This document shows positions 30,604 to 44,252 of a stretch of DNA of 64,000 nucleotides, piece by piece; the stretch's first letter is position 1; each line of letters begins with the position of its first letter. The position numbers and the translations under genes are program-made. Location: NCBI RefSeq assembly GCF_988243305.1, contig NZ_OZ547136.1, one strand, 5' to 3'. The notes beneath the pieces are model-generated. The model did not search any database, was not told the origin of the DNA, and worked only from the letters and a program-made list of their open reading frames with translations.

Positions 30604-32406
30604 GTGCGCCGTGACTGGCGCTGTTCTTCAACTGTGGTGGCAGAAGAACGACTAAGAGGTGAAAGTCCTCCACACACCCGGTGAGGGGAAGTGTTAGCGG
30701 AAGGCAAGGGTGTTCATCGCGAGGTGAAATCTGAAGGAAGCTGGATGCAAAATGCTGGCCTGACGAACAGGAAGCGGTTAAGTCGGCGCAGCAGGGTAAG
30801 GTGGCACAAATCACCAAAGCCCGATACTCACACGGAACGCTGTGACGTAAAGCCGACAGGCATAAGCAGGAAAGTCGCGTGAATTACCCCGGGAGATCTG
30901 TCGCCCTGCCAGTGTGCTACCGGCGCCGTGAGGCGCCGGGATGGGGCGGCAGAAGTCAGCCGACGCCGTAGTAGTGCTGCAAAACCGGCAGCATGAAGGG
31001 CCGAACATGATTAACTGTGATTAGGACATCCGAACCCGATGATGATTAATGAAGCACAAGCGCAGGCAACTGCGACCAGCGGCAGAGGAGACGGACAGTA
31101 TCCGTCAGGGCTGCATGATGGCGCTGAAATCAGCACGGCGGCGGGTGGGCAAACGAAAGCGGAAGTGCCGCTGACGATGGAAGCGGTGATAACGAGAGAA
31201 AACCTGATGCTGGCTTATCAGCGCGTGGTGGAAAACAAAGGCACGGCGGGGGTGGATAACCTCAGCGTGGCGGAGTTGAAACCGTGGCTGAAGAAGAACT
31301 GGCGCAGCGTCAGGCAGGCATTGATTGACGGAAACTACCAGCCGCGGGCAATACGCCGGATGGATATCCCGAAGCCGCATGGCGGCGTGAGAACCTCAGG
31401 CATCCCGACGGTGGTGGACAGGCTTATCCAGCAGGCGGTGCAACAGGCACAGCGTTACATACGGGGTGGCAAACGGTGGGTGGTGGATATGGATCTGGAG
31501 AAGTTCTTCGACCGTGTGGATCACAGACTCCTGATGACGCGTCTGGCCAGAACGATAAAGGACAGGCGGGTGCTGTGACTGATACGCCGCTACCTGAAAG
31601 CGGAAATGGTTAAAGACGGGCAAAGGGAGAAACGGCAGGCGGGCATGCTGCAGGGCGGCCCACTGTCGCCGTTACTGTCGAACATCCTGCTGGATGAACT
31701 GGATAAAGAACTGGAGCGTCGTGGACACAGCTTCTGCCGCTACGCAGACGACTGCAACATCTACGTAAGCAGCCGGAAAGCGGGCGACCATCTGCTGAAG
31801 AACATCAGGGCGTTCGTGGAGAACAAACTGAAGGTGAATGAGAAGAAGAGCGCGGTGGCGCGCCCGTGGGATCGGAAGTTCCTCGGGTACAGTGTGACAT
31901 GGCACAAACAGGCGAAGCTGAAGATAGCCCTGACGAGCGTGAACAGGCTGAAGGAGAAAGTCCACAGTCTGACGACGGGAAACCGGAGCAAATCAGTGAA
32001 AGCGACAATCAATGCTCTGACACCAGTGCTGTGTGGATGGATAAGCTACTTCAGGCTGACGGAAGTCAGAGGAGTGCTGGAGGAGCTGGATGGCTGGATC
32101 AAACGGAAACTGCGTTGCTTGTTGTAGCGGCAGTGGAAGAGACCGCTAACCCGGGCAAAGAACCTGCAAAGAGCAGGACTGAGTAAGGACAGGGCAATGA
32201 TCTCTGCGTACAACAACCACGGGCCATGGTGGAACTCAGGGTCAAGCCATATGAATCAGGCGATAAAGAATACATGGTTCAGGAGGCAGGGTCTGATATC
32301 ACTGCTGGAACAGTAGAGGCAGTTCCAGAGTTAACATGAACCGCCGTATGCGGAACCGCACGTACGGTGGTGTGAGAGGACGGCGGGAGTGATCCCGCCT
32401 CCTACT
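30604..32406 (+). mobile_element. Group II intron (bacterial class C-like, inserted just downstream of a terminator hairpin), degenerate
   Basis: 5' end GTGCG at 30604; domain V-like hairpin at ~32341-32372; internal RT/maturase ORF; 3' boundary approximate. Confidence 0.7.
31039..32316 (+). pseudogene. Group II intron reverse transcriptase/maturase with two in-frame stop codons and an internal deletion
   Basis: RT motifs (LEKFFDRVDH, QGGPLSPLLSNILLD, YADD); in-frame TGA at 31576-31578 and TAG at 32125-32127 with homology continuing downstream (GPWWNSGSSHMN); ~30 aa missing after LIQQAV. Confidence 0.75.
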
Positions 32407-32676
32407 CGATCAATTTTAAAACACCTCCTATGTAGGTGGTGATCGTTCATGTGGGGCTTTCTGACAGACTGCCTCGTCATTCCATTCGTATCGCCAGTAA
32501 CTGGCGTTTGTATTGTGGCAGTTCTGGTATACGTTTCCCTGTGTATCTGCACTGGTTCAGCAAGGTTTGAAAAGGAGTATCCCTTGCAAATAACCGAAGC
32601 ATTACTTTCAGAGCCGGAGCTGTTTTTGTTGCTGTGATCCATTTCAATTTTTTCGTGACAAATTATTTATAAATAT

Positions 32677-36335: not shown

Positions 36336-36881
36336 ATGTCTGGGAAAAGTTTAGGCTTAATCGAAACCGTCGGGATGTCTGCGGCGGTAGAAGCCGCCGA
36401 TGCCGCAATGAAATCCGCTAACGTTAGTCTGGTAGGCTATGAATTGACGAAAGGCGGCGGGATGGTGACCGTGAAGCTGGAAGGGGAAGTGGGCGCAATT
36501 AACGCGGCGGTAGCGGCAGCCATCAGCGCGGCAAGCCGGGTTGGCGAGGTGTATGCCCATAAGGTGATCGCCCGCACCGCGCAGCATATCGAGCAGATTA
36601 TTCACTCTAAAGTGACCGCCGGCGTCGCAGAACCTCAACCTGAAGTGCCTGCTGCACAACCGACACTGCAGGCTGAAAACGCGCCTTCACAGACATTCCC
36701 GGTGGTTAACCTTGATACGTCAATCAGCGCATCCTGTATGGATGTCACTGATGAAACGCTGAAGTCCATGGAGCAGCATCAACCGGTTAAACCCTCAATA
36801 GAAAACACTAAACCTACAAAATCTGATGTACCGCAGGAGGCAGCAAAGAAAGGTCCTCGTTCCAGCGGCAAGAAAAAATAA
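36336..36881 (+). CDS. BMC-H shell protein with long low-complexity C-terminal extension
   Basis: Start at ATG 36336 with RBS ACAGGAGA; BMC domain (MSGKSLGLIETVGMSAAVEAAD) then ~90-aa Pro/Ser/Lys-rich tail. Confidence 0.8.
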   Translation: MSGKSLGLIETVGMSAAVEAADAAMKSANVSLVGYELTKGGGMVTVKLEGEVGAINAAVAAAISAASRVGEVYAHKVIARTAQHIEQIIHSKVTAGVAEPQPEVPAAQPTLQAENAPSQTFPVVNLDTSISASCMDVTDETLKSMEQHQPVKPSIENTKPTKSDVPQEAAKKGPRSSGKKK

Positions 36882-36899
36882 GTAAATTGCTATGACGCT

Positions 36900-36937
36900 G
36901 CCGCGATAACAATTTCTTTATCGCGGCATTTTTTTGC
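36900..36937 (+). terminator. Rho-independent terminator at end of GRM locus
   Basis: Hairpin GCCGCGATA...TATCGCGGC followed by ATTTTTTT, 19 bp after stop. Confidence 0.65.
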
Positions 36938-37237
36938 TTAACAGATAAAGTAAAAAACCATCTGCATAGCGGGCGGCTTTGACACGGCCCCCTGAAAGGG
37001 GGCTTAAACACTACCCTTTCAGGCCCAGTTGTATTTGTCTTTCTTCTTCCTCTTTTGCTACCTTGTTCGAAAAGGGACGCTCGTCCTCGCCCACTGTTCT
37101 GTATGCATACCTGCTCCCACTGCAAATTATATTGCTGGGCTATGTTAACAAGCCTATATGCTATTAAAAACTCATGAGCAACATATTGATAATACCATTC
37201 TTATATATCCACGCTTAAGTAAATAACTCTTACATAA

Positions 37238-37582
37238 CTAACTATTCCATCTCACTTCTTCCTTAGCGAGTTTTCGGTATGCAATAGGAGCTATACCAAA
37301 GCGGCGAGTAAATGCCCTTGTAAATGTCTGCTGAAAATCAAACTGATATTTAAAAGTGATAGTCGTGACCGATTCAGTAGTAGAACGTAGTTCTTCTGCT
37401 GCATTTATTAATATACCTACCAATAGAAATACCAATGATATGTTTAAACAATTTCTGTAAATACCATTTTGAATATCCAGCTTTTTTGCCTCAATATTTA
37501 TTGAGAGTTCTACCTCAAGATTTTCATCAATTCATTTAGCAAGCTCATTGATATCAGCGCTGTTTTTTATAGTAGCGTTCAT
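37238..37582 (-). pseudogene. MarA/SoxS-family AraC-type regulator with in-frame premature TGA codon
   Basis: Translation MNATIKNSADINELAK-stop-IDENLEV...QQTFTRAFTRRFGIAPIAYR aligns with SoxS/MarA; stop sits where homologs have Trp; start overlaps 3' end of TetR-family gene. Confidence 0.5.
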
Positions 37583-38225
37583 TTTTATCGATGCCTGTGA
37601 AGGTTGATTGGGTCAACTCCAGTACTATGCAACCCTCTCTGAAAAGGGATTTATTATCAGGTTGCAGAATGCAACTTCGCACCACCCCCGTAAACAAAGA
37701 AAAAAGCAGGAACGCCAGAGCCTCACTACGAATTTCCGAACATATTTCTCTATATAACTTACCTTTTTCGAAAATATAACATAGTAATTTCACAAAATTA
37801 TTGACATCCACCATTTTTTGTAAGAAATTTATTCTTATATCATCCGGACATTCTTCACAAAAAAACACAATATAAATTACATTCCGTAAGTGTACATTAT
37901 ATTGTAATTTAATCAGGCTACGTGATAAGCAACGATACATCGCTTTAACCGGTTCAGAAACTCTCCCATTTTTGATGGCTGTAAGCTCATCAAATAATGA
38001 TAGTGGTACCCGCTCGATGACTTGTCGCAGAAGATCTTTTTTTTCGTTGAAATACCAGTATATGGCCCCCCGAGTACAACCTGCGCGCACCGCAATCATC
38101 TCCAGTGTCGTCTTCGAAAAGCCCGTCTCACAAAAGCAGAACTCTGCCGCATCCAGGATTTGTTTGCGGGTTTCTTCCGCTGCAAATTTTGTGTGCCGCA
38201 CCACTGTTGAAATCTCCATTGACAT
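37554..38225 (-). CDS. TetR-family transcriptional regulator (AcrR/EnvR-like)
   Basis: 223-aa ORF with N-terminal TetR HTH (TRKQILDAAEFCFCETGFSKTTLEMIAVRAGCTRGAIYWYF). Confidence 0.8.
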   Translation of the reverse strand: MSMEISTVVRHTKFAAEETRKQILDAAEFCFCETGFSKTTLEMIAVRAGCTRGAIYWYFNEKKDLLRQVIERVPLSLFDELTAIKNGRVSEPVKAMYRCLSRSLIKLQYNVHLRNVIYIVFFCEECPDDIRINFLQKMVDVNNFVKLLCYIFEKGKLYREICSEIRSEALAFLLFSLFTGVVRSCILQPDNKSLFREGCIVLELTQSTFTGIDKNERYYKKQR

Positions 38226-38324
38226 CTTATTTCAGGAAATATCTCTGGGGCATTTAGTACCAACCCAACAGCCATTTACTCAGGCGCAGTATGTTGTTTA
38301 CTGCACCTGAATATTTACTCATGC

Positions 38325-39481
38325 TTATGATTGCTCAGCTTCAGTCTTATCCGATGATTTCTTATTTCTGCGGCTGAAGAACCCGGCAATTAACATATAG
38401 AAGAGAGGAATATAAAAGATTGCCAGTATCGTAGCAGTGATCATCCCTCCAACCACACCAGTACCGATGGCATGTTTACTTCCGGAACTTGCTCCAGTCG
38501 AGACAGCCAGTGGGATAACCCCCATTACAAATGCCAGCGAAGTCATAATTATCGGTCTTAACCTCACTCTCGCCGCTTCAACAGCAGCCTCTTTAATGCT
38601 TAGTCCTTCTTTCTCATGCAATTCACGAGCAAACTCCACGATAAGTATGGCATTTTTCGCAGACAGCCCTATTGTTGTTAATAAACCGACCTGGAAAAAG
38701 ACATCGTTACCAAGGCCGCGCAACAAAGTAGCACAGACAGCCCCCAGGACACCAAGCGGAACAACCAGCATGACCGAGAAAGGAATGCTCCAGCTTTCAT
38801 ACAGTGCAGCCAGACACAGAAAGACGATCAACAGTGAAAGTGCATATAGTGCAGGAGCCTGAGAACCTGAAAGTCGTTCCTCAAAAGACAAACCTGTCCA
38901 GGAAATATGGAAACCTTCGGGAAGTCTTGCCGCAATATCCTCAATTGCTTTCATTGCATCCCCGGAACTGTATCCTGGTGCCGGTTCCCCCAGGATTTCG
39001 ACAGCAGAGATACCATTATATTGCTCCAGTTTTGGTGAGCCATAAATCCATTTGCCTGTTGCAAAAGAGGCAAAGGAAACCATGTCGCCATCACTGTTAC
39101 GGACATACCATTTATCAAAATCCTGCGGTGATATACGTGAGCCGGGTTCGCCCTAAATATAGACTTTTTTCACCCGTCCACGATCGTTAAAATCATTTAC
39201 ATACATCGAACCCCAGGCTGCTGGCATTATGTTGTCGACGTCGCTCATGCTCAGTTTAAGCGCCTGAACTTTCTCGTCATCAATCAGAATCTGGAACTGA
39301 GGCTCATCGTTCATGCCGTTAGGACGAACCATGTTTAACGCTGGACTTTTCGCCGCTTCAGCAAGAAGCTGATTTCGGGCCTGGATCATTTTTTCATGGC
39401 CAGCTCCGCTACGATCCTCGAGGAACAGGTCAAACCCTGTAGCATTCCCCAGTTCTGATACGGCAGGGGGCGTTTTAAAAC
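38325..39481 (-). pseudogene. RND efflux transporter (AcrB/AcrF-like) 3' remnant, frameshifted and truncated by IS2
   Basis: 252-aa ORF matches AcrB C-terminal TM bundle; adjacent 78-aa ORF (39153-39389) matches an internal AcrB segment in another frame; 5' end replaced by IS2 at 39482. Confidence 0.75.
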
Positions 39482-39833
39482 TAGACTAGCCCCCAGAATC
39501 TCCAGACAACCAATATCACTTAAATAAGTGATAGTCTTAATACTAGTTTTTAGACTAGTCATTGGAGAACAGATGATTGATGTCTTAGGACCGGAGAAAC
39601 GCAGACGGCGTACTACACAGGAAAAGATCGCTATTGTTCAGCAGAGCTTTGAGCCGGGAATGACGGTCTCCCTTGTTGCCCGGCAACACGGTGTGGCAGC
39701 CAGCCAGTTATTTCTCTGGCGCAAGCAATACCAGGAGGGAAGTCTTACTGCTGTGGCCGCAGGAGAACAGGTCGTTCCTGCCTCTGAACTTGCTGCTGCC
39801 ATGAAGCAGATTAAAGAACTCCAGCGCCTGCTG
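39482..39833 (+). mobile_element. IS2 left-end fragment with truncated orfA (InsC-like)
   Basis: Terminal sequence TAGACTAGCCCCCAGAATCTCCAGACAACC and InsC N-terminus [26 protein letters not shown]...; homology ends near 39833. Confidence 0.8.
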
Positions 39834-40137
39834 AACAAAACGCCGGATGTCTCCCGGCTCTGAAATTAAGGCTTCGGTTATTTGCACGAAATGTTCCTTT
39901 TCAAACCCTGTTGAATTTTGTTAAGCCGGTGCAGACACACGGAAAACGCACATCAACACCGGACGGTACGATACAAACACCAGTGACTGGCGGGACGAAG
40001 GGAATGACGAATCAGTCAGGAAATGATGACAAACAGTTGGCAGACCAGAGGAGTCAGCAGAAAGATGAGCGGGAGTGTCGCCAGCATCGGGGACAGGGCT
40101 GATTTCCGCAATACCAGCGCCGGCATTGCAACACGTT

Positions 40138-40311
40138 TCATGCTGCTGCTCCTCGTGATTCCTCAATTCGCTGCTGCATCCACTGCTCCACTTCACTTTT
40201 GTACCAGCGGCTGCTGCGCCCCAGTTTGATGGGTTTAGGGAAATGACCTTCACTGATCAGCTTGTAAAACCATTTATCGGTCATACCGGTGAAACTGGTG
40301 ATGTAGTTCAT
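40138..40311 (-). CDS. AlpA-family prophage transcriptional regulator
   Basis: MNYITSFTGMTDKWFYKLISEGHFPKPIKLGRSSRWYKSEVEQW matches AlpA-type HTH pattern. Confidence 0.7.
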   Translation of the reverse strand: MNYITSFTGMTDKWFYKLISEGHFPKPIKLGRSSRWYKSEVEQWMQQRIEESRGAAA

Positions 40312-40439
40312 GTCGATCAGGGGATCGTCGGCACGCAGTAACACGCTGTCGTGGCTTGTTGTGGTCAACATGGTCAGAATGTCCTTTGTGAGATTTATGA
40401 AGTTTGTGCGAATGCAGGGAAAGATGCTGAACCGAGCTT

Positions 40440-41045
40440 TCAGAACGGTCCTGCAGATCCGGGATAGCCGGGATTACCGGCGAGGCAACGGGCTTCCGGA
40501 TCGCACACACCACGACGATCGCGGGCGAAATCACTGAACGCCCATATCAACTCTTTGAGGATGTTTTCACAGTCCGGTGAACGACTGTCCAGCACCACAT
40601 CCCGGGTGATCTGCTTCTGATACTGCTTTGCTTCACCCGGTGACGCGAAGCCCAGTACGTTGCTCCAGGCATCCAGAATCAGCCGGTCCAGTTCAGGGCC
40701 GTCGAAATACTCCTGTCTGACACACAGCACCACGTGGTATTCCGGCTTTTCAGGATGACGGGTCAGGAGCCAGCAGAGATCTCGTCCAGGTGTTGCATTC
40801 ATCAGCGCACTGACGGTTTCGATAAAGTCCATACCGAACCAGATCTTTCTGCTGCTGAAGGTACGGTCATATTCACATGGCAGACGAAGCAGGATCCGTC
40901 GTATCCGGGAGCCGGACTGCTCACGCAGCGCACGCTCAAGGACACCGATGATTTTGTTCTGATAAGACGGCCAGAAGGGTGCCAGGCTATAGTCGAAATA
41001 AGGGATAGCATTCATAAGATATGCTCCGTTATGCGCAGCCCACAA
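40440..41045 (-). CDS. YfjJ/YagK-family (inovirus Gp2-like) prophage protein, paralog 1
   Basis: 201-aa ORF with family motif EYHVVLCV; conserved leader motif upstream. Confidence 0.55.
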   Translation of the reverse strand: MWAAHNGAYLMNAIPYFDYSLAPFWPSYQNKIIGVLERALREQSGSRIRRILLRLPCEYDRTFSSRKIWFGMDFIETVSALMNATPGRDLCWLLTRHPEKPEYHVVLCVRQEYFDGPELDRLILDAWSNVLGFASPGEAKQYQKQITRDVVLDSRSPDCENILKELIWAFSDFARDRRGVCDPEARCLAGNPGYPGSAGPF

Positions 41046-41272
41046 TGCGTCCTGCCCGTGAATGAGCTGACGTGTTATAGCTTGCGGATGGGGTTGATGG
41101 AATAAGTGAAGAACCGAAGCAGAACGGGAAGATCAGGTCACCGACAAGGGACAGAACACCGGATGTGGTTAAGAGTGAATGATCTCCGTTGACTTCAGTT
41201 CACATCATTAAGCAAGGTGGTAAGGTTTTACCGACGGAATGTTTCCAGGACAGGAAGCTCAGGATTTAAGCT

Positions 41273-41839
41273 TCAGAAGTGAGGGTTACGAGGACGCCCT
41301 GCAGCAGGACGTTCAGGAACTTCATTGCAGCCGTAGGCACACAGCCCGTCTTTTTGCTCTTCTTTTGCCAGATAATGCAGGGCACCGCGAATATTATCGA
41401 TGCTTTCAGGATCGTTGTGGCGCACAGGAATGTTGATGTTGTATGTATAATGCGGCTGATATGTACAGCGGTGTGCCGAACCGCTGTTATGTGTAATAGA
41501 CCGCCAGCATTCCGTAATCCGCTCCGCAAAGGGATATATTTTTTTAACCCTCTGACGATCGATCCACAAAACCGCATGCGCATGAAAACCATGATCAGCC
41601 GTCCATTCAATCACCCAGAAGAAACCAACGATATTTTCAAATTGTTCCACCTGCTCCAGCAGCATACGCAACTGCAATTCAAGCCAGCGATGATCAGGTT
41701 GTAAGAAATCGGGCGTATCTTTCCTGTAGAAGAAATCCATCCGTAAGGCCCGCAGGCAGGAATAGCGTGCCATCATTTGATTGATGTGATTGTCAAGTAA
41801 AGCGGTAAAAAACCAGTTTGGTGTGTAAGATTTAGGCAT
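41273..41839 (-). CDS. YfjJ/YagK-family prophage protein, paralog 2
   Basis: 188-aa ORF with HAHAVLWI motif. Confidence 0.55.
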   Translation of the reverse strand: MPKSYTPNWFFTALLDNHINQMMARYSCLRALRMDFFYRKDTPDFLQPDHRWLELQLRMLLEQVEQFENIVGFFWVIEWTADHGFHAHAVLWIDRQRVKKIYPFAERITECWRSITHNSGSAHRCTYQPHYTYNINIPVRHNDPESIDNIRGALHYLAKEEQKDGLCAYGCNEVPERPAAGRPRNPHF

Positions 41840-42670
41840 GTTGATGACTCCTGAAAGTTAATGATGTTTTAAGCTCTGTGAACGAATTAATGCTTTCGCT
41901 CATAACGGTAATAACTTACAGATGGTATTTATCAGGCATGCTGTAGCAGAATGGATACGACGGGTTATTAACGATACGCAGCATTATGCAGAAAGAAATG
42001 GATTATCTGATGGTATTAGCTAAAGAGATGAGATAAACGAGGAGTAAAGAAAATACAGACTCAATAAAACATCACGAAATACTGTAAAATACGAGCTAAA
42101 ACCCCACTACCTGGAGATTAAGAAACATATTGCGACCAATCACATCATAAACTACAAACTTGCTCTCAGTGAGTCTGCAAAAACGTGTACAAGGCCAACA
42201 CATATCTGTAACCTGATAAAATCATACACTCTCATTTAATCTGTTAAAAACAACTCACTTCAAAACATGAGCGTTAACGGGTACACGGTACCAGAATAAA
42301 ATATACCATGGATGGATAATTTTCATTTTGTTTAACATACAAGATAATCAGAAACGAACAAATATAATCAGGAATTCACTCTGTTAATTTCATTGTTTAT
42401 CCTGCGCTGTTAAACATGACGAAATCATGGATACCTTATCAAAGAGTAAACATCCAGTTAATCAGTGATGACAGAAGTATTGATATTTACCAGAATAGTT
42501 AAAACACTTCAGGTCAACAACAATCATCGTTAAGTCAATACAGTTCATTATGGATAATGACTAAAATCAATTGCTGTTTCAGTGAAGACTGATAACAGGT
42601 AGATATTAGCAACAACGTAGTAAAATAACTTATCTGAGTATCGTATGAATTACAGTAGTTATGATTGAAT

Positions 42671-42721
42671 GAAGGAGAAGGTGGAGAAGGTGGAGAAGGT
42701 GGAGAAGGTGGAGAAGGTGGA
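42671..42721. repeat. Short tandem repeat, 9-bp unit GAAGGTGGA x5 plus partial copy
   Basis: Read directly from sequence in AT-rich ORF-free region; explains spurious Pro/Ser-repeat ORF on minus strand. Confidence 0.9.
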
Positions 42722-43157
42722 TACCATGATAATGGTGGCAATGAAGATTAGACAAGGAAGGGAGTAAGTATAATCGGGTGAGGGTCAGAGTAATGGAATG
42801 AGTAAAGATAGAGAGTAAGTAAAAACAGAGTGAATAAAGACAAAGTGAATATAATTATAGTAATAAACCTAAATTAAAAATACTTGCGTATAATGGAAAG
42901 AAATAAGAATTAAGAATAGCGTATGAGTCGTAGTCATGACCTGGCTACAAAAAGTCATTCCATCTGGCTGTCATTCAGACACACTCCCCAAACATTCGAC
43001 TACAAAGTACTAACAGAAAATTAACTGATGTATTATTCTTCTGCCCTGAATGAACATCCGGAAGTATAATCTCCCCTAGCTTCACGTTCACCGGGAAAAA
43101 CGAAGCTATTTACTTTGATGATCGCTGACGAAAAACCGAACAGGCAGTTGCATAATC

Positions 43158-44252
43158 ATGGACAACAGAGAAAAAGAGATACTCAGGATCCTGCGTCACA
43201 ACCCACTGATCCAGCAGAATGAAATTGCTGAGATTTTACAAATCAGTCGGTCGCGTGTTGCTGCACACATTATGGATCTGATGCGCAAAGGTGCGATTAA
43301 AGGGAAAGGCTACATCCTGACAGAACAGGAATACTGTGTTGTTCTTGGGGCGATTAACATGGATATCCGTGGGGTGGCGGATATCCATTATCCACAGAAA
43401 TCCTCCAGTCCGGGCAGTATTTACTGCTCTGCCGGAGGTGTCGGACGCAACATCGCCCATAATCTCGCCCTTCTGGGCCGCAATGTGCATCTGATATCTG
43501 CTGTAGGCAATGATTTTTATGGCGAAACATTACTGGAGCAGACCCGCCTGGCCGGCGTTAATGTCACCAATTGTATTCGACTGAACGGACAAAATACTTC
43601 AACTTATGTCTCCATCGCCGACCTACAGGCAGAAACAGTGATGGCGATTAATGATACCCATATTCTGCAACAACTGACGCCGCAGTTGCTGGACGCCTCA
43701 CGTATGTTAATCCGTCACGCTGGCGTGGTGCTGGCTGACTGTAATCTGACACCTGCCGCCCTTGAATGGATCTTTACGGTCGCTGACGGCATTCCCGTTT
43801 TTATTGATACAGTGTCGAAATTTAAGGCTGTTAATGTAAAAAACTGGCTTCCGCATATCCATACCCTGAAACCCACACAAAAAGAACTGGAGATATTATG
43901 GGGTTCCCCTGTCAACAATGAGACCGATCTACTCACCGCAGTGAACGCACTACATCAGCAGGGTGTGCAACAGATTTTTGTCTGGATGGGAGATGAATCC
44001 GTTTTCTGTAGCCAAAGAGAGGGAGAACAATTTCTGCTCACACCGCCCGTTCATGCCGTTGTGGACAGCTTTGGTGCAGATGATGGCTTTATGGCAGGTC
44101 TGCTTTACAGTTTTCTGGAAGGAAGTAGTTTCCAGGAAAGTGCTCACTTTGCGATGGCATGTGCAGCACTGTCACGTGCCAGCACCAGCATCAATAACCC
44201 AACACTTTCCGTTAATAACGCGCAATATCTGTTAAAAACATCCCGGGGGTAA
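43158..44252 (+). CDS. YeiI-like protein: N-terminal winged-helix HTH fused to PfkB-family sugar/nucleoside kinase
   Basis: 364-aa ORF; HTH (LIQQNEIAEILQISRSRVAAHIMDL) plus PfkB motifs (GGVGRNIAH, DSFGADDGFMAG). Confidence 0.8.
   Translation: MDNREKEILRILRHNPLIQQNEIAEILQISRSRVAAHIMDLMRKGAIKGKGYILTEQEYCVVLGAINMDIRGVADIHYPQKSSSPGSIYCSAGGVGRNIAHNLALLGRNVHLISAVGNDFYGETLLEQTRLAGVNVTNCIRLNGQNTSTYVSIADLQAETVMAINDTHILQQLTPQLLDASRMLIRHAGVVLADCNLTPAALEWIFTVADGIPVFIDTVSKFKAVNVKNWLPHIHTLKPTQKELEILWGSPVNNETDLLTAVNALHQQGVQQIFVWMGDESVFCSQREGEQFLLTPPVHAVVDSFGADDGFMAGLLYSFLEGSSFQESAHFAMACAALSRASTSINNPTLSVNNAQYLLKTSRG

Follow-up and report, generated by a model that had tools for sequence, protein, structure and literature searches.

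Decayed remnant of a probable accessory RND efflux operon, with overlapping TetR and MarA/Rob-type genes, beside an IS2 stump in Escherichia coli

A short locus with traces of an efflux pump, a TetR-family regulator and a MarA-like activator follows the grp island (a glycyl-radical propanediol microcompartment; grpS ends at 36881) on its right and is bordered on the other side by island debris with AlpA and YagK/YfjJ-like genes. What was this locus, and can any part of it still work or be restored? It forms part of a 64,000-nucleotide stretch of DNA (the window; contig NZ_OZ547136.1 of assembly GCF_988243305.1), of which positions 37238 to 39833 are treated here. We conclude that the region is very probably the 3' part, no longer functional, of an accessory RND efflux operon that was acquired horizontally, brought to its present state by ordinary gene decay. 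All three genes lie on the minus strand, as the first-pass annotation of this DNA had it, and the features are as follows.

37238..37582, minus strand: pseudogene of an AraC-family activator resembling MarA and the N-terminal part of Rob (119 residues when intact), with three lesions
37554..38225, minus strand: intact gene of a TetR-family regulator, here called TetR2 (ORF of 223 residues)
38226..38324, minus strand: intergenic spacer between the RND remnant and TetR2 with a hairpin (inverted repeat, 15-nt arms at 38277-38291 and 38299-38313)
38325..39472, minus strand: 3' remnant of a MexB/AcrB-type (HAE-1) RND permease, residues ca. 663-1044 of 1044
39473..39481, no strand assigned: nine nucleotides of filler (TTTTAAAAC) separating the last RND homology from the IS2 repeat, from a four-way alignment of the junction
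39482..39832, plus strand: left-end remnant of an IS2-type element, with the terminal inverted repeat and the 5' part of orfA

The locus is shared by many genomes. Over positions 37000-39900, many E. coli chromosomes match the window at 99.9% identity (strains M217, NCTC86, Sanji and several AR-bank isolates), and two of 2,901 positions differ from M217, neither of them a lesion site. Searched for without its IS2 part, the remnant turns up in 541 of the 5,426 complete E. coli genomes, the match spanning 80% or more of it in 528, and identical lesions recur in hundreds of complete genomes. Homology E-values for the parts of the locus range from 1e-9 to 0. Neither the homologies nor the lesions are due to chance. 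Automatic annotation has already marked the operon remnant as pseudogenes in hundreds of genomes. An Rfam scan of 36500-43500 returned no known RNA, and the GrpP/GrpQ paper on the neighbouring island makes no mention of TetR, efflux, AraC or a pseudogene.

The pump had been described as frameshifted fragments of a decayed efflux module cut by IS2. Of this reading the cut holds, with the left end of IS2 at 39482, but the frameshifts do not: minus-strand translation of 38325-39482 yields a single continuous frame of 385 codons, the other two frames being full of stops. Its sole in-frame stop is an amber TAG at 39153-39155, where intact copies encode Q769. On the IS2 side, homology to intact genes ends at 39472, at about residue 663 of 1044, and the remaining ca. 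382 codons are collinear with an intact orthologue over 381 codons (dN 0.02). The surviving part is homologous to AcrB and MexB, while the window copy does not encode an uninterrupted ACR_tran protein of the full length of ca. 1,040 residues; PGAP describes it as 'internal stop; missing N-terminus'. The intact orthologue, measured on the 984-residue copy of strain AF43, scores 1169.8 bits against ACR_tran and 1558 bits against TIGR00915 (cutoff 940), and the 1044-residue orthologue of E. coli 02B21CPO003B (L008) finds MexB as its best solved match (1587 bits; AcrB 1400). The dN/dS ratio of the remnant against an intact copy is 0.086, close to the intact-versus-intact value of 0.072, which indicates that almost all of the divergence predates inactivation. 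On these ratios, inactivation is recent relative to the divergence of the alleles. The spacer hairpin downstream of the pump gene recurs in the intact loci of E. coli and C. koseri, a single base pair having changed on both arms, and Pectobacterium carries a different GC-rich hairpin with a T-run at the same position.

The insertion element at the other end of the pump remnant is itself a stump. Its 351 nt are 95.4% identical to K-12 IS2 and up to 99% identical to other IS2 isoforms. They hold the left terminal repeat and part of orfA (start at 39573; Pfam HTH_Tnp_1, 70.6 bits; PGAP: 'transposase, missing C-terminus'), and the orfB and right terminal repeat of a complete element are missing. 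All IS2 matches end at query position 351 (window 39832), so the right side of the element has been cut off. This second truncation and the nine-nucleotide filler at the junction make it less certain that IS2 itself caused the loss of the neighbouring genes.

TetR2 is intact, as had been annotated. Its 223-residue product carries a TetR_N domain (PF00440; residues 23-69, 52 bits against a cutoff of 24, 6e-14) and aligns over its full length with 13 relatives and with the 221-residue orthologues. It thus has both the helix-turn-helix domain and the full length of ca. 200-220 residues expected in the TetR/AcrR family. It is not an AcrR orthologue by its score against the AcrR equivalog NF007949 (81.7 bits, cutoff 271), and the closest solved structures are SmeT (2w53) and TtgR. 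It is 91% identical to its intact counterpart in E. coli and 76% identical to that of C. koseri. The family is rare, since ca. 30 relatives with more than 38% identity were found among 5.8 billion proteins. TetR2 is the fourth operon gene in intact loci and is orphaned in the window. Judging from a sample of evenly spaced genome matches, we estimate that about 60% of the genomes with the remnant have an intact copy.

Comparison with homologues bears out that the neighbouring MarA-like segment represents a genuine gene and belongs to the MarA/SoxS/Rob/RamA group. The first-pass annotation had correctly noted that its start overlaps the end of TetR2 (ATG at 37582-37580, TetR2 stop at 37554-37556, overlap 29 nt) and that codon 17 is an opal TGA (37534-37532) where relatives have TGG (W). 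When the DNA was aligned with that of strain Y5 and with the intact AF43 copy, two further lesions came to light which the annotation had missed, a shortening of an A7 tract to A6 (T6 on the plus strand, 37482-37487) and a 14-nt deletion (ATCAGAGATAGCAG) with its junction at 37412/37413. These losses of one and 14 nt sum to 15 nt and the frame stays open. Residues 35-64 (AGYSKWYLQRLYKYVIGIPLGRYIRDSRLT) of the 119-residue protein are replaced by 25 unrelated residues, making the product 5 residues shorter, and three-frame translation puts the first helix-turn-helix 'AGYSKWYLQKLFKHIIGISIGRYINK' out of frame with everything else in the gene. The scrambled stretch contains the helix 'GYSKWYLQRL'; its counterpart in alignments with RamA and Rob is the conserved 'GYSKWHLQR', which, going by published MarA structures, we take to be the first recognition helix. 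The second helix-turn-helix is intact (65-residue ORF, HTH_18 3.2e-9). The intact orthologue (HTH_18 76.7 bits; aligned with RamA over residues 11-109) has two intact helix-turn-helix motifs in a DNA-binding domain of ca. 100 residues, and the window copy does not.

Intact copies reveal what has been lost. The complete module consists of a divergent TetR1 gene (210 residues) and, in the other direction, genes for an adaptor (374 residues), the RND pump (1044 residues), TetR2 (221 residues) and the MarA-like activator (119 residues). TetR1 and TetR2 are distant relatives of each other (36% identity over 76 residues). In E. coli 02B21CPO003B the module occupies the same chromosomal site and has the same right-hand neighbours, sugar kinase/nupC/psuG. 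The left side of the window keeps the first 13 codons of an SLC13 permease gene which is a neighbour of the module in intact strains. Synteny between the window and the intact locus picks up again at 43123, so that window positions 39473-43122 have taken the place of 5.8 kb. This lost segment carried TetR1 and the adaptor gene, with the promoter region, and two-thirds of the pump gene, counted from its 5' end. Eight of 5,426 complete genomes have a divergent E. coli allele (ca. 92% identity) with a longer RND gene. In four of the eight, an IS3-family element cut off the first ca. 60 codons of the pump gene; the other four (4 of 5,426 E. coli genomes) have no such element and a complete module, at the chromosomal site where the window has its remnant. 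C. koseri carries the same five genes at 88% DNA identity to the window. Where a source is recorded, the intact E. coli and C. koseri alleles come from human isolates.

The same gene order, ending in a Rob-like activator of ca. 300 residues with a GyrI-like domain, occurs in at least seven further genera of Enterobacterales. A profile scan built on a 14-sequence alignment and one genome per species turned it up in Pectobacterium, Serratia, Acerihabitans, Kosakonia, Enterobacter mori, Erwinia and Mixta. An earlier scan of that genome collection with the single TetR2 protein had found no relative. The short activator of E. coli and C. koseri corresponds to such a Rob-like protein without its C-terminal GyrI-like domain, and a search downstream of the short gene for a remnant of this domain found none. 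The co-directional arrangement of TetR2 and activator had been remarked on as unusual compared with divergent pairs; it proves instead to be a conserved architecture. In all nine loci examined (E. coli, Citrobacter and the seven other genera) the TetR2 stop overlaps the activator start, by 11-47 nt if the first in-frame ATG is used and by 11-29 nt with annotated starts, 11 nt being common. As the overlapping pair is conserved across genera, the architecture is ancestral. An AAGGAG-like motif lies just upstream of the activator start in several of the nine loci, and together with the overlap this suggests that TetR2 and the activator are translationally coupled. The remnant probably points to an uncharacterised, sporadic Enterobacterales cassette, namely an RND operon with a 3' overlapping, probably coupled pair of TetR-family and Rob/MarA-type regulators. 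We found no paper describing this module in the literature on C. koseri RND/TetR/AraC genes, Pectobacterium Rob or MarA homologues downstream of RND genes.

The order in which the locus decayed emerges with intact E. coli and C. koseri as outgroups for lesion polarity. The window lineage and the Y5-type lineage, which are 99.2% identical, have both the IS2 cut and the 14-nt deletion. Only the window lineage has the amber, the opal and the A7 to A6 change, while the Y5 lineage instead carries +1 and -1 frameshifts in TetR2. The ancestral locus had TetR1 divergent from a four-gene unit of adaptor, MexB-like RND pump, TetR2 and short MarA/Rob-N-like activator. While the two main E. coli lineages were still one, an IS2-associated event removed TetR1, the promoter region, the adaptor and the first ca. 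662 pump codons, with IS2 being either the cause of the 5.8-kb loss or just a marker of its edge. The 14-nt deletion also frameshifted the activator gene before the split. Later, the window lineage acquired the amber in the pump gene, the opal at W17 of the activator and the 1-nt slippage in the A7 tract, which just happened to restore the downstream activator frame. We infer that neither pump nor activator can be made from the window locus.

Three other readings of the locus were weighed against plain decay. According to one of them, selection keeps TetR2 as an orphan regulator of other genes, for example other efflux operons. In its favor, TetR2 is full-length in the window lineage whereas both flanking genes carry several lesions, and its dN/dS of 0.31 does not exceed the 0.34-0.42 seen between intact copies, although the ratio is similar in every comparison and hence does not separate a maintained gene from a recently orphaned one. 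Weak promoter-like sites also lie within or upstream of TetR2 on the minus strand, but such matches are no commoner than in shuffled sequence; a scan of the locus for promoters and terminators gave counts not above the shuffled background (promoter-like 7 vs 4.9 ± 2.5). Further, the presumed cognate promoter region of TetR2 has been deleted, the two frameshifts in sister lineage Y5 indicate that the gene is dispensable there, and a gene of 672 nt is expected to stay intact for some time by chance. We thus regard selective maintenance as unlikely. Most likely, TetR2 is a still translatable leftover which has lost its operon and has not yet decayed, rather than a maintained regulator.

The remaining two readings concern the activator. 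The first-pass annotation had suggested that a single reversion could restore a MarA-type activator, i.e. that the gene is silenced by the opal at codon 17 only. The reading frame is indeed open from the opal to the natural stop and the second helix-turn-helix has survived. However, the alignment with the intact copy shows that the -1 and -14 deletions exchange residues 35-64 for the 25 unrelated ones. With its first DNA-recognition helix scrambled, reversion of the opal alone would not give a working activator, and we give this proposal next to no credence. Could the frame-restoring A7 to A6 change instead have been selected because it yields a new small protein, for example the single-helix-turn-helix ORF of 61-65 residues? 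The 1-nt loss compensates the 14-nt loss exactly, and PGAP annotates a 61-residue 'helix-turn-helix domain-containing protein' at 37238-37423. Yet a random indel restores the frame one time in three, slippage in A tracts is a common neutral change, the opal sits upstream of the small ORF, the putative start of that ORF is a non-ATG codon and MarA-type proteins need two helix-turn-helix motifs. Selection for such a protein is therefore very improbable, and ordinary decay of the operon remains our preferred reading. The window copy itself is of little weight, being just another accessory operon that turned into pseudogenes next to the scar of a mobile element. It does advise caution over calling a pseudogene 'one mutation from function' on the strength of an open frame, since in this gene the scrambled DNA-binding helix is masked by two deletions that compensate each other.

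How the intact module might work can be proposed by analogy. AcrR, TtgR and SmeT repress divergent promoters. TetR1 would similarly repress the divergent promoter until a ligand binds, and induction would then co-express TetR2, for feedback, together with the activator. The operon has no outer-membrane channel gene and would thus depend on TolC; because of this missing gene, the activator may serve to raise expression of host tolC or the mar regulon. Tentatively, and with considerable doubt, induction of the pump could in this way lead through the activator to expression of host tolC and the mar regulon, supplying the missing channel, with the E. coli/C. koseri form of the activator being a GyrI-less, MarA-sized and possibly constitutive version. 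An additional multidrug pump, as yet unstudied and equipped with its own MarA-type activator, may be encoded by the rare intact alleles, and these could bear on resistance surveillance.

Among known systems, the module resembles HAE-1 pumps of the MexAB/TtgABC/SmeDEF type, in which a TetR-family gene is likewise divergent from an adaptor-RND pair. The likeness extends to the proteins, with MexB as the best solved match of the pump and SmeT/TtgR as the best matches of TetR2. In contrast to these systems, the module has no outer-membrane channel gene and adds a second TetR gene and an AraC-type activator gene downstream in the same direction. In case of marRAB, the repressor gene precedes marA in one operon. 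The module would resemble it in having a repressor gene followed by a co-directional MarA-type activator gene, but its repressor belongs to the TetR instead of the MarR family, and its pair overlaps and, instead of being free-standing, closes a pump operon at the 3' end. As in ramR/ramA and acrR/acrAB, a TetR-family repressor is tied to a MarA-type activator or a pump operon; those pairs are divergent, whereas TetR2 and the activator are co-directional and overlapping, with TetR1 taking the divergent position.

Scores against named families set the module apart. The intact 119-residue activator aligns end to end with RamA (1.3e-29), Rob-N (1e-28), SoxS and MarA, keeps the helices 'GYSKW.LQR' and 'FDSQQTFTR' of this group and has RamA, Rob, SoxS and MarA as its closest solved structures. 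It is nevertheless a separate paralogue, since it stays below every named equivalog cutoff (RobA 135.7 against 380, RamA 122.9 against 180, SoxS 120.4 against 174 and MarA 92 against 250). The intact pump likewise falls short of the equivalog cutoffs for AcrB, AcrD and OqxB. With pump, TetR2 and activator all below the NCBIfam equivalog cutoffs of the named proteins, the module is an unnamed paralogous system and not a copy of acrAB, oqxAB or ramRA. For the Serratia copy, we considered identity with SdeAB/SdeR/SdeS or with 'Roblike', a second activator reported in 161 of 175 Serratia genomes (PMC13228086, 2026). This is unlikely, as 'Roblike' is common and the Rob-like protein of the module is rare (5 members at 98%); set apart by their frequency, the two are probably different genes.

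The efflux remnant, with its IS2 stump, is flanked by the end of the grp island on the left and by island debris on the right. Within the window, the remnant and its surroundings contain the following features:

30713-32410, plus strand: group II intron separating grpO from grpP in the grp island
32467-32617, plus strand, and 39854-40017, minus strand: imperfect inverted repeat of ca. 165 bp (BLAST, MAFFT)
37070-37108, minus strand: start of an SLC13-family permease gene, comprising its first 13 codons (MHTEQWARTSVPF), with the upstream region
38277-38313: conserved hairpin directly 3' of the RND stop codon
40138-40371, minus strand: AlpA-like gene
40440-41045, minus strand: unassigned 201-aa ORF
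41273-41839, minus strand: YagK/YfjJ/REP-like gene

In intact E. coli loci, the SLC13-family permease gene borders the module on its left. In the window, grp-side sequence stands in place of the gene beyond its first 13 codons, which places the island junction at ca. 37069. Just after grpS, a strong terminator-like hairpin is found on the plus strand (36899-36928; 11 pairs and a T7 run), and the grp operon probably ends there. On the other side of the remnant, the debris that includes the AlpA-like gene, the 201-aa ORF and the YagK/YfjJ/REP-like gene occupies 39833-43122; beyond it, the window is again syntenic with intact loci.

The hairpin at 38277-38313 separates the pump gene from the regulator genes. 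Alleles from E. coli and C. koseri differ in one of its base pairs, with both partners altered, and the equivalent position in Pectobacterium is occupied by an unrelated GC-rich hairpin with a T-run. This element may act as an attenuator or, alternatively, in mRNA processing or stability.

A rearranged variant of the module is present in Brenneria (locus L007) and Prodigiosinella (locus L011). At both homologous loci, the counterpart of the second TetR-family gene adjoins that of the divergent TetR-family gene; it is located upstream of an adaptor-RND-OMF operon that is more distant (63% RND identity), with no AraC gene following.

Within the grp island, Rfam matches to the group II intron cover D1-D4 (30713-31001) and domain V/VI (32339-32410). 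The intron looks decayed because its reverse-transcriptase/maturase gene is broken into two ORFs (31039-31578 and 31606-32127). Just 3' of it lies the plus-strand copy of the inverted repeat; the minus-strand copy directly adjoins the truncated end of IS2 on its right. The two copies share 74% identity by BLAST, with a mean column identity of 83% in a padded MAFFT alignment. They may be left over from a different mobile element or may once have served as a substrate for recombination.
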